A stretch of DNA of 64,000 nucleotides from a virus (IMGVR_UViG_3300031519_004326:1-64000), one strand, 5' to 3'. Positions 3,043 to 5,401 are shown, counted from the first letter of the stretch. A program made the numbers and translations. Notes: generated from the sequence alone by a model not told the origin.

Positions 3043-3117
3043 ATGAAAGTTTGTACAGAATGTAACACAGAGTTAGGACACGGAGATTGGTGTCCTAACT
3101 GTAGAGTAAAAAGATAA
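3043..3117 (+). CDS. 24-aa CxxC-CxxC zinc-knuckle microprotein
   Basis: MKVCTECNTELGHGDWCPNCRVKR*; GGAG upstream; below ORF-track size. Confidence 0.6.
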   Translation: MKVCTECNTELGHGDWCPNCRVKR

Positions 3118-3118
3118 C

Positions 3119-3194
3119 GCCCCTTTAGCTCATTTGGTAGAGCAATGGTTTTGTAAACCATAGGTGGTTGGTTCGAATCCGACAAGGGGCTCCA
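3119..3194 (+). tRNA. trnT: tRNA-Thr(TGT)
   Basis: ATGGT-TTTGTAA-ACCAT, acceptor GCCCCTT/AAGGGGC, CCA. Confidence 0.95.
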
Positions 3195-3201
3195 TTTTTA
3201 A

Positions 3202-3286
3202 GCGAGTATGGTGGAATTGGTAGACACGCTAGATTTAGGTTCTAGTGCCGCAAGGCGTGAAGGTTCAAGTCCTTTTACTCGTACCA
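3202..3286 (+). tRNA. trnL: tRNA-Leu(TAG)
   Basis: CTAGA-TTTAGGT-TCTAG, long variable arm, CCA. Confidence 0.95.
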
Positions 3287-3293
3287 AGTTTTA

Positions 3294-3369
3294 GGGGCCT
3301 TAGCTCAGTTGGGAGAGCGATTGCTTTGCAAGCAATAGGTCAACGGTTCGATCCCGTTAGGCTCCACCA
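3294..3369 (+). tRNA. trnA: tRNA-Ala(TGC)
   Basis: ATTGC-TTTGCAA-GCAAT, G3:U70 identity pair, CCA. Confidence 0.96.
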
Positions 3370-3457
3370 AGTTAAAGGGTTTTGTTCCCCTTGTAAAACA
3401 AATGAACAAATGGTGCCCAGGAGACAAAAAAGAAAGTTAACTTAAAGATTAACAAAG

Positions 3458-3464
3458 ATAAATA
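3458..3464 (+). promoter_or_regulatory. T4-type late promoter box
   Basis: ATAAATA; same box recurs upstream of genes at 12222, 13368, 14153, 18012, 19312, 31415, 32174, 35154, 36562, 45788, 49402, 50172, 55053, 59675, 61961. Confidence 0.75.
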
Positions 3465-3509
3465 AGTATAGTATAGTAAGTTAAACAGCTTATATGAGGA
3501 GAATATAAA

Positions 3510-3902
3510 ATGGTAGCACTAACAAGAGTAAATGGATCGGGGCTATCAGTTGCCGCAACAGTTTATGGACCAGGAGCAACTGCATTTAAAATTATAGTTA
3601 AAATTGCAAATGCTACAGTAGTTGATCTAAGGGCAGAAGATGATGCATTAGATGAAACAGTAGAGCAAATTATTAAGGAAATTAATCCGTTAATGTATAT
3701 GACTACTAACGCTGATACAGGTATAATAACTGTAGTATGTGATGCAAATGCAACAGCAGCAGACTTACAACATAGAATTAGAACTATTGGTGGTAATTGG
3801 ACCAGAAGTACTGGGGCCTACGCTGTATCATCAGTTGGACCAAACGAGATTGATACAAGTGGTACATTAGTTACTGCCGCGGCAACACTAACAGCAACAT
3901 AA
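3510..3902 (+). CDS. putative virion structural protein
   Basis: 130 aa, Ala/Thr/Val-rich, strong RBS GAGGAG, late box upstream. Confidence 0.6.
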   Translation: MVALTRVNGSGLSVAATVYGPGATAFKIIVKIANATVVDLRAEDDALDETVEQIIKEINPLMYMTTNADTGIITVVCDANATAADLQHRIRTIGGNWTRSTGAYAVSSVGPNEIDTSGTLVTAAATLTAT

Positions 3903-3922
3903 TTAAATAGTTAACTTAGTAG

Positions 3923-3951
3923 TTGACAGACGATGAATACCACTGTATACT
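3923..3951 (+). promoter_or_regulatory. sigma70-type promoter of leader-peptide/tRNA operon
   Basis: TTGACA-17 nt-TATACT. Confidence 0.9.
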
Positions 3952-3989
3952 AAGTATATAAAGTAAACAAAAGAACAACAGGAATTACA

Positions 3990-4052
3990 ATGCACAAGAC
4001 GAGCTTACAATCATTTTATTGGTGCCCACCGAAAGGGAGGGGTTTGTCTTGA
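3990..4052 (+). CDS. putative attenuator leader peptide MHKTSLQSFYWCPPKGRGLS
   Basis: AGGAA RBS at 3980, ATG 3990, TGA 4050; lies between promoter and terminator. Confidence 0.7.
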   Translation: MHKTSLQSFYWCPPKGRGLS

Positions 4053-4082
4053 TGTGACTTTTTAACAAAAGTAATATTATAG

Positions 4083-4119
4083 AAGCCCTTAGCATTTAGT
4101 TGTTAAGGGCTTTTTTTTT
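4083..4119 (+). terminator. intrinsic terminator (attenuator) upstream of tRNA-Trp
   Basis: AAGCCCTTAGCA-TTTAGT-TGTTAAGGGCTT stem followed by T run 4111-4119. Confidence 0.9.
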
Positions 4120-4130
4120 GAAAGTTTTAA

Positions 4131-4205
4131 AAGTGTGTGGTGTTAATGGTAACACGTTGGTCTCCAAAACCAAAGTTTAGAGTTCGAATCTCTACACGCT
4201 TGCCA
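4131..4205 (+). tRNA. trnW: tRNA-Trp(CCA)
   Basis: TTGGT-CTCCAAA-ACCAA, acceptor AAGTGTG/CACGCTT, CCA. Confidence 0.93.
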
Positions 4206-4211
4206 ATTTAA

Positions 4212-4293
4212 GCAGAGTAGGTTCCACGGTGGGACATCGGACTGTAAATCCGACGCTAACGCATAGTAGGTTCGACTCCTACACTCTGCACCA
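4212..4293 (+). tRNA. trnY: tRNA-Tyr(GTA)
   Basis: TCGGA-CTGTAAA-TCCGA, acceptor GCAGAGT/ACTCTGC, CCA. Confidence 0.93.
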
Positions 4294-4298
4294 GTTAA

Positions 4299-4376
4299 CT
4301 CGATGTAGCTCAGTCTGGTTAGAGCACTCCGTTTGGGGCGGAGGGGTCGTAGGTTCGAATCCTACTATCGAGACCA
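4299..4376 (+). tRNA. trnP: tRNA-Pro(TGG)
   Basis: CTCCG-TTTGGGG-CGGAG, C1:G72, A73, CCA. Confidence 0.95.
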
Positions 4377-4381
4377 AGTTA

Positions 4382-4469
4382 GGAAGATTGCCAGAGTGGT
4401 CGATCGGAGCTCCCTGCTAAGGAGTTGAACCGCAAGGTTCCGTGGGTTCGAATCCCACATCTTCCTCCA
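4382..4469 (+). tRNA. trnS: tRNA-Ser(GCT)
   Basis: GCTCC-CTGCTAA-GGAGT, long variable arm, T73, CCA. Confidence 0.93.
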
Positions 4470-4474
4470 ATATT

Positions 4475-4548
4475 GTTAGTGTGGCAGAAAGGCTATGCAA
4501 CGGACTGCAACTCCGTGTATGCTGGTTCGAATCCAGTCGCTAACTCCA
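4475..4548 (+). tRNA. trnC: tRNA-Cys(GCA)
   Basis: ACGGA-CTGCAAC-TCCGT, U73, CCA. Confidence 0.94.
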
Positions 4549-4555
4549 ATTACGG

Positions 4556-4584
4556 TTGACATACATACCATTAGGTTGTATAAT
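4556..4584 (+). promoter_or_regulatory. sigma70-type promoter (tRNA-Arg)
   Basis: TTGACA-17 nt-TATAAT. Confidence 0.9.
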
Positions 4585-4593
4585 AAATCATAG

Positions 4594-4670
4594 GCGGCTG
4601 TAACTCAGTTGGATAGAGTACCTGGCTACGAACCAGGAAGTCAGGAGTTCGAATCTCTTCAGCCGCGCCA
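4594..4670 (+). tRNA. trnR: tRNA-Arg(ACG)
   Basis: CCTGG-CTACGAA-CCAGG, acceptor GCGGCTG/CAGCCGC, CCA. Confidence 0.95.
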
Positions 4671-4688
4671 ATTTTTATAAATTAAAGG

Positions 4689-4717
4689 TTGACAATATCC
4701 TCATTAGAGGTTATACT
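4689..4717 (+). promoter_or_regulatory. sigma70-type promoter (csp)
   Basis: TTGACA-17 nt-TATACT. Confidence 0.9.
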
Positions 4718-4794
4718 ATGTATAACAGTTAGGCAAAAGTTGCTTAACGTTTAATTAACGAAGGTAAAACTTCACATAAGGAAGATAGAATAAG

Positions 4795-4992
4795 ATGGTA
4801 ACAGGAAAAGTAAAATGGTTTGATGCAACTAAAGGTTTTGGATTCATCACACCGGACGATGGCAGTAAAGATATATTTGCACATCACACAGGTATTGCAG
4901 GTGACGGATATAAATCTTTGGCAGAAAACCAAGAAGTTACATTTGAAATTATTGAAGGCCCTAAAGGTCTACAAGCAACAAATATTTCATAG
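4795..4992 (+). CDS. cspA: cold-shock protein (CspA family)
   Basis: [15 protein letters not shown] (RNP1), DIFAH (RNP2), GPKGLQA. Confidence 0.96.
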
Positions 4993-5004
4993 TATAACCT
5001 AATA

Positions 5005-5079
5005 GGTCCCTTCGTCTAGTGGTTAGGACACCGGGTTTTCATCTCGGCAACAGGAGTTCGACTCTCCTAGGGACTACCA
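5005..5079 (+). tRNA. trnE: tRNA-Glu(TTC)
   Basis: CCGGG-TTTTCAT-CTCGG, acceptor GGTCCCT/AGGGACT, CCA. Confidence 0.94.
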
Positions 5080-5104
5080 AATTGCACTAACTAAGAGCTA
5101 AAGT

Positions 5105-5401
5105 ATGAAATACATACCGCAGGAAGATAATCGCAAGTACGATGAAGAAGCAAGAAACTTAATTAGACCATTAGGCACTGAACGAAAATACGAACTGTAT
5201 GATATCGTTCTTAAAAAGCAGAAGTGGTCTAACTCTCCTACACGGGATTTAGAACTTGCTGCTGTAGTTAAAGCAATTGAAAGTGCAAGTGGAGTAGACT
5301 CGTTTCGCCTAGATAAAATCAAGAACGGATATCGAAGCGAAATGGCTGCAACAGCTAGACCCAAAGACGGATTTACTAAGCCGGCTAAGAAGAAAGCATA
5401 A
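5105..5401 (+). CDS. hypothetical protein
   Basis: 98 aa, basic C-terminus, coupled to next gene. Confidence 0.7.
   Translation: MKYIPQEDNRKYDEEARNLIRPLGTERKYELYDIVLKKQKWSNSPTRDLELAAVVKAIESASGVDSFRLDKIKNGYRSEMAATARPKDGFTKPAKKKA

Follow-up and report, generated by a model that had tools for sequence, protein, structure and literature searches.

A putative leader-peptide attenuator in front of a phage tRNA array, with leader codons associated with the tRNAs encoded downstream

Why should a phage place a short open reading frame and a strong transcription terminator directly against a group of its tRNA genes? Phage tRNA genes are usually viewed as constitutive helpers of codon usage or as substitutes for host tRNAs that defence systems have removed, and to our knowledge hardly anything is known about the control of their expression. 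The question is raised by the locus described in Table 1, which is located in a 64-kb piece (hereafter the window, i.e., the whole stretch of DNA that was analyzed) of a 72-kb IMG/VR virus record of a marine phage. This record has an estimated completeness of ca. 20%, so that the source phage would have a genome of roughly 350 kb, and the window has no close relative among the GenBank phages. A preliminary description of this DNA had listed a promoter, a ribosome-binding site, a 20-codon ORF, a terminator and five tRNA genes, and all of them are borne out at the positions of Table 1 by the sequence, ARAGORN and consensus scans. Judging from sequence comparison and folding models, we give a probability of about 0.6 to the reading that these parts form a trp-type leader-peptide transcription attenuator that feeds back on tRNA supply. 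The phage would then probably make these tRNAs only when ribosomes decode the leader codons slowly.

Table 1. Positions in the window of the leader module, its predicted RNA elements and the tRNA array.
Feature	Position	Strand	Basis or remark
sigma70-type promoter TTGACA-17-TATACT	3923..3951	+	11/12 consensus matches
Shine-Dalgarno AGGA	3980..3983	+	6 nt 5' of ATG, outside all predicted helices
Leader ORF, 20 sense codons + TGA	3990..4052	+	sequence, in-frame length variation
P1 5' strand (start-codon region)	3992..4004	+	predicted to pair with 4042-4055
AGC, CAA and TCA codons	AGC 4002-4004, CAA 4008, TCA 4011	+	further leader ORF codons
TAT TGG TGC CCA CCG run	4017-4031	+	leader ORF codons
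G-run segment	4038..4056	+	4038-4045 set against the terminator 5' arm; 4042-4055 is the P1 3' strand, including the stop codon
Small A/U hairpin between ORF and terminator	4057..4072	+	folding; stacks in the antiterminator fold
Intrinsic terminator	4081..4119	+	14-bp stem, 6-nt loop, nine T
tRNA array Trp(CCA), Tyr(GTA), Pro(TGG), Ser(GCT), Cys(GCA)	4131..4548	+	ARAGORN; Rfam tRNA 47-62 bits
tRNA-Trp	4131-4205	+	
tRNA-Tyr	4212-4293	+	
tRNA-Pro	4299-4376	+	
tRNA-Ser(GCT)	4382-4469	+	
tRNA-Cys	4475-4548	+	

The terminator hairpin (stem 4081-4094/4101-4114, about -19.8 kcal/mol) ends in a T-run at 4111-4119, and the gap from there to tRNA-Trp is 11 nt, so that a sigma70 promoter cannot fit in between; the spacers between the tRNAs of the array are 5-6 nt. 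The next promoter-like site is found at 4556-4584, ahead of a tRNA-Arg gene. The preliminary description had seen no other promoter until 4556, and an independent promoter between terminator and tRNA-Trp was indeed not found in the window and in the relatives with a gap of 0-22 nt. As there is no room for a promoter after the terminator, the five tRNAs would be made only by transcription that passes it, which should start near 3958. Contigs from RNA libraries of three studies span the leader and the tRNAs, although assembled contigs cannot show transcript ends or levels. One type of RNA contig, obtained in two runs of the same study, extends through the terminator (3936-4404), with DNA carry-over being possible.

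The same parts in the same order, i.e., promoter, Shine-Dalgarno, short ORF, terminator and tRNA-Trp, are found in all the relatives that we have collected. These amount to 57 different modules, in which 44 different leader ORFs are represented, and come from IMG/VR and JGI metagenome contigs of uncultivated phages, almost all of them marine. The first syntenic relative (L002) was found by a protein search with the 130-aa gene located upstream, and carries the same module. Four further anchors were used: the G-run motif in IMG/VR, the same motif in the JGI metagenomes, the 5' end of tRNA-Trp, and the transition from the terminator 3' arm to tRNA-Trp. The G-run patterns fixed that motif in the alignment obtained with them (A1), and for this reason we added the scans anchored on tRNA and terminator, which place no constraint on the leader. 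Among the candidates rejected were the loci L118 and L119, unrelated chance matches to a pattern taken from the 5' portion of the leader, and most matches of a 15-mer scan, also due to chance. Relatives of the leader were absent from GenBank phages, where near and distant DNA searches matched tRNAs only.

In each of the 57 distinct versions the module is located immediately 5' of tRNA-Trp. The terminator was found in all relatives, with some compensatory changes, and nearly all have a TTGACA promoter at equal distance. It is missing in L121, where a promoter-less module lies between tRNA-Glu and tRNA-Trp, indicating a gate within an array and not a separate gene. The related loci L122, L127 and L131 have a tRNA-Trp without any leader, and the module is thus common, not obligatory. 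We found no sibling attenuators before other tRNA blocks of the window or of the fetched loci; the window blocks 2542-2787 and 3119-3369 come after ordinary ORFs.

Leader codons and array content are associated across the relatives, and this association supports the sensing of particular tRNAs. The preliminary description had pointed out that every tRNA downstream has a cognate codon in the leader. This is indeed so for five of five in the window, with a chance probability of 0.0019 as estimated with random 19-codon stretches from the phage's own long ORFs; TGC represents 0.19% of the phage codons. That homologous leaders track the tRNAs behind them, a point on which that description had staked its reading beforehand, was found as well. 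Over 46 distinct leader/array pairs with complete arrays (anticodon-CAT tRNAs left out), 85 of the 87 non-Trp array tRNAs have their cognate codon in the leader, vs. 66.0±3.0 when arrays are permuted (0/20000; ancestry ignored). We have also contrasted modules carrying a given tRNA with the nearest relative lacking it, nearness being taken from flanking sequence only. The difference was in the predicted direction in 33 contrasts, against it in 4 and nil in 32 (n = 69; sign test 5e-7, ancestry ignored).

Some individual cases can be described. L038 has two Tyr codons and the array Trp, Pro, Tyr, Cys, and L143 has CGT in place of TAT before TGG and the array Trp, Pro, Cys, Arg-ACG. Neither a Tyr codon nor a tRNA-Tyr is present in L032; its sister L140 has two Tyr codons and tRNA-Tyr, and lacks both the Cys codon and tRNA-Cys. 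Three ATA codons accompany an AUA-reading tRNA in L171, the sister of which (L183) has four TCA and a tRNA-Ser(TGA). Three ATA and the AUA reader are likewise found in L156, and L212 has no ATA and a Trp-only array. L121 and L123 have no Pro codons, and their arrays are also Trp-only.

The tracking is loose, as identical leaders stand before different arrays (six, in the case of the exact leader of the window) and codons for Tyr, Cys and Pro can persist in the leaders of Trp-only arrays. There is an Arg-GCG tRNA in L166 without leader codon, and Pro codons are kept in L154, L171 and L176, where there is no tRNA-Pro. The AGC at 4002-4004, proposed earlier as control codon for tRNA-Ser(GCT), is present, but no contrast backs the link, since the three nearest-neighbour pairs available for Ser(GCT)/AGC are all equal. 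Arrays behave as subsets of the set spelled by the leader, and leaders adjust with a lag. An attenuator or translation-coupled terminator that senses general translation capacity, or the charging of tryptophan/tRNA-Trp only, would be in agreement with this looseness and with the 32 equal contrasts, with TGG and tRNA-Trp as the only universal codon/tRNA partners, and with the strong conservation of TGGTGCCC; the other matching codons would in that case be ancestral or structural, TGC CCA being part of a conserved C-rich segment. However, leaving out Trp and Pro, 53 of 55 array tRNAs are still matched vs. 35.4±3.0 permuted (ancestry ignored), the contrasts for the AUA reader are in the predicted direction in seven out of seven cases, the change of TAT to CGT in L143 goes along with the swap of the Tyr for the Arg(ACG) tRNA, and the four TCA of L183 come with Ser(TGA). 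These codon contrasts make such a Trp-only or general sensor unlikely.

Regarding the AUA reader itself, L024 (7087-7180), L032 (reverse strand, 94 nt after tRNA-Trp) and L076 carry a 94-nt tRNA with anticodon TAT, a long variable arm and A73. Its sequence features identify this tRNA as one with a class II body (Leu/Ser/Tyr type) that reads AUA. On the other hand, the arrays of L152, L192, L209, L213, L154 and L076 include tRNAs called Met(CAT) behind leaders with three ATA, and these may be lysidine-type tRNA-Ile2 rather than tRNA-Met.

Returning to the attenuator reading, its leader ORF has to be translated, and this is supported by in-frame variation in length. Counted from the start codon, the conserved stop motif lies 47, 53, 56, 59 or 62 nt away and in a single frame in 41 of 44 leaders, the three exceptional ones continuing to a later stop; the other two frames contain 25 and 21 stops in 27 leaders. 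Of the 44 start codons, 38 are ATG and 6 are GTG, and AGGA or AAGGAG precedes the start by 6-10 nt in 26 of the 27 listed leaders. A start-stop mini-ORF (ATG TGA, 4052-4057) with the G-run as its Shine-Dalgarno was also considered and was dropped, as it is not kept in L032, L040 and L121.

A conserved and evidently translated ORF could also be a functional micropeptide gene that forms a transcription unit by itself, from promoter to terminator. The tRNAs would then be reached by constitutive leak or by means of a phage antitermination factor, and shared codon usage and synteny would account for the codon match. The frequent WCP and C-terminal G-R-G-(L/M)-S of the peptide would fit, as would the fact that phages using more ATA also carry the AUA reader (3.2% vs. 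1.6%). However, the leader peptide is poorly conserved as such and its N-terminal half is free to vary. Its C-terminal part is encoded in another frame in L123 and L192/L209, where the nucleotides of this 3' part of the ORF are nevertheless kept. This points to constraint on translation and RNA and not on a peptide product. The 20-aa peptide had no match in Pfam or PHROGs, ATA is more frequent in the leader than expected from the codon usage of the respective phage (L032, p = 4e-4; L024, p = 3e-3), and the module is always joined to tRNA-Trp, even when it is promoter-less inside an array as in L121. The lack of peptide conservation, above all, makes a micropeptide gene quite improbable.

At the RNA level, the minimum free energy fold of the free leader is 3.8 sd below that of shuffles (z = -3.8). 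This fold is closed by the P1 helix (3992-4004/4042-4055), and the hairpin 4025-4041 proposed earlier, although present, is only its inner part. Co-variation of P1 across relatives is supported by their sequences. In an alignment-free partner-swap test the own strands gave -11.0 kcal/mol vs. -9.3±0.2 kcal/mol for swapped ones (0/2000). Compensatory changes include ATG with CAT vs. GTG with CAC or CGC, TCAAGAC/GTCTTGA vs. TTAAGAC/GTCTTAA, and a G-C, G-U, A-U series at one position in L192 and L209. One pair of the hairpin 4057-4072 changes from UA to AU in four sequences. GGGG(T/C)(T/A)TGTCTT is nearly invariant in A2, an alignment anchored on terminator and tRNA only, and the nucleotides of the stop region are kept even where the reading frame differs (L123). 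A start codon enclosed in a co-varying P1, the stable fold and, in one RNA library, a contig depth of 32 over the leader vs. about 10 over the first tRNAs (a weak point, these being contigs) could speak for an untranslated structured small RNA (P1-closed stem plus terminator; an sRNA gene or a processing or insulator element before the tRNA block) with an open frame by chance, but this is very improbable given the in-frame indels (41 of 44 leaders over five lengths), a start that is always ATG or GTG, a Shine-Dalgarno conserved outside any helix, the codon content that tracks the tRNAs and the lack of an Rfam family match.

The attenuator reading further needs an antiterminator, for which the preliminary description had put forward the pairing of 4038-4045 with 4083-4090. 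For the folds, we took the nascent RNA as far as the terminator loop and masked the 28 nt covered by a ribosome. In these constrained folds the pairing has a probability of 0.81-0.91 with the ribosome A site at codons 1-11, 0.60 at TGC, 0.28 at CCA and 0 from CCG onward, including the stop; that is, folding with footprint constraints, as had been suggested, predicts the antiterminator for a ribosome at codons 1-12 and the terminator for later codons. With no ribosome the probability in the window is 0.41, leaving the model undecided, and the folds of L024 and L032 prefer the antiterminator. The same switch point is predicted in L018, L038, L076 and L121, the latter with a different terminator stem and a shifted complementary segment, and the antiterminator is predicted in L123 as well. 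TGG is located 18 nt 5' of the G-run; in trpL the control codon and the antiterminator strand have the same spacing, about 17-18 nt.

As for the Y-W-C-P-P run, taken earlier as the control codons, the sensing window of codons 1-12 ends at TGC, and in the footprint model the two Pro codons lie at its limit, with a ribosome stalled at the second one favouring termination, the wrong sign for tRNA-Pro. The antiterminator duplex has no better energy than the duplexes obtained after dinucleotide shuffling of the upstream region (p = 0.29 for the window and 0.02-0.26 for six relatives), and its partner-swap test gave a small signal (own -13.47 vs. swapped -13.22, 23/2000). Its core pairs are invariant in A1, the search patterns of which required the motif, so that they speak neither for nor against the pairing. 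The antiterminator modelled here is compatible with the data; the statistics do not demonstrate it. Among four testable features of leader-peptide attenuators, we have thus found three, i.e., an ORF with a ribosome-binding site, a terminator without intervening promoter, and matching codons. The fourth, an exclusive antiterminator pairing, is predicted by the constrained folds, with energies no better than shuffles and minimal covariation.

Put together, the mechanism proposed would be as follows. Host RNA polymerase would initiate at the promoter, and a ribosome would load on the nascent leader and translate the 20 codons. With fast decoding, the ribosome would come to the last five codons and the stop and cover the G-run (4038-4045), the terminator would form and transcription would end 11 nt before tRNA-Trp. 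A delay at codons 1-12, which include the Tyr, Trp and Cys codons and, further upstream, Ser and Gln, would be caused by scarcity of the matching aminoacyl-tRNAs and leave the G-run free to pair with 4083-4090, allowing the polymerase to continue into the Trp, Tyr, Pro, Ser and Cys tRNAs. In the absence of a ribosome, P1 would close the leader and hide the start codon. The conserved core of the device would be a ribosome at the 3' end of the ORF covering the sole G-run that competes for the terminator 5' arm. From these models we infer that ribosome position decides termination, and also the direction of the response. The products would be the sensed molecules, resulting in a direct negative feedback on tRNA supply.

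At even odds, we would go further and suggest that phages carry evolvable multi-codon gauges of decoding, in which the speed of the pioneer ribosome on a 20-codon test frame sets the supply of exactly those tRNAs by direct feedback. They would be on when the host pool is inadequate or destroyed (e.g., by anticodon nucleases) and off when supply suffices, with the codons of the frame changing as the array gains or loses tRNAs. A role of host anticodon nucleases is speculative.

The trpL, hisL, leuL and pheL leaders consist of a short promoter-proximal ORF with control codons and an alternative antiterminator or intrinsic terminator. The phage module resembles them in its control codons and, as predicted by folding, in its alternative G/C segments and in the block of the antiterminator by a ribosome at the ORF end. 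However, those leaders regulate biosynthesis enzymes whereas this one would regulate tRNAs, its output being the sensed molecule. Besides, the module is encoded by a phage, its putative anti-antiterminator is a long-range helix that would also hide the start codon, and it has one Trp codon and not a run as in trpL. Codons for several amino acids are mixed in the leaders of thr (Thr, Ile) and ilvGMEDA (Leu, Val, Ile), which integrate several shortages. The phage leader is similarly multivalent, but its mix follows the downstream tRNA set and changes with it. The pheST attenuator of Escherichia coli (leader pheM) is a case of leader-peptide attenuation of an aminoacyl-tRNA synthetase in which one amino acid is sensed; the target is also part of the translation apparatus but no tRNA gene is controlled. 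T-box riboswitches bind tRNA directly, without a ribosome, and control synthetase and amino-acid genes. A terminator/antiterminator decision that reports the state of a specific tRNA would be common to them and the module, whereas the module is proposed to use the ribosome. No match to the T-box model RF00230 was found in 3400-5200 at E<=10, and a permissive Rfam search gave only sub-threshold hits driven by the terminator (PyrR, trpB motif, rnk leader), none of them near the gathering score.

The published example of a regulated accessory tRNA array that comes closest is the cryptic trn operon of Anabaena PCC 7120, a long tRNA array located on a bacterial megaplasmid that is silent and becomes induced when translation is impaired, its control relying on promoter direct repeats bound by the repressor TrcR (PMC8421152, PMC10272220). 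The words leader, attenuation and terminator are not used in the 2021 paper. Control there is by a repressor, whereas in the phage an attenuator is proposed. In full-text literature searches, control of tRNA genes by a leader peptide did not turn up, in line with the earlier remark that no described attenuator was known to gate tRNA genes this way. Nor do we know of any earlier case of a product that is itself the molecule sensed. If true, the reading would extend classic leader-peptide attenuation to a new class of targets, tRNA genes, and would explain why large phages have strong terminators that abut tRNA genes. Ready-made specificity variants are available in nature, as the leaders differ in their codon sets, and such elements could serve as compact sensors of tRNA availability.

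Several other observations were made at these loci. About a dozen relatives have a structured insert of 90-108 nt in the gap between terminator and tRNA-Trp, in which no sigma70 promoter was noticed. In L073, L094 (94 nt) and about ten other loci it is a conserved segment of ca. 90 nt, placed between the T-run and tRNA-Trp and present in two sequence versions, with a cloverleaf-like fold of a 10-bp closing stem and three hairpins; it gave no tRNA call and no Rfam match. L022 and L079 have a different insert, of 108 nt, with an 18-bp closing stem. In L002, a minus-strand ORF rich in Cys/His pairs (homing-endonuclease-like; 4800-5400) lies between tRNA-Trp and tRNA-Tyr, and a duplicated 5' piece of tRNA-Trp is found upstream, at ca. 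4690-4715.

In the window, a 24-codon ORF with two CxxC pairs (3044-3118) abuts tRNA-Thr (3119); there is no terminator before this tRNA, and the ORF is therefore not an attenuator of the leader type. The region 3402-3500 contains a 12-codon mini-ORF with TGG TGC CCA (3402-3440) and, after it, a promoter cassette that shares ca. 90% identity with that of the leader in L002 and has its -35 weakened to TTAACA. By its sequence, the region appears to be a degenerated second copy of the leader module, which now precedes the 130-aa gene (3510-3902). Besides the conventional tRNA-Ser(GCT) at 4382, the window has at 2620-2710 a class II tRNA called Ser with anticodon ACT (A34). Finally, at 4689-4992, a cold-shock-protein gene (PHROG 729, E = 5e-21) is located between tRNA-Arg and tRNA-Glu, preceded by a consensus promoter and a hairpin-bearing 5' UTR.
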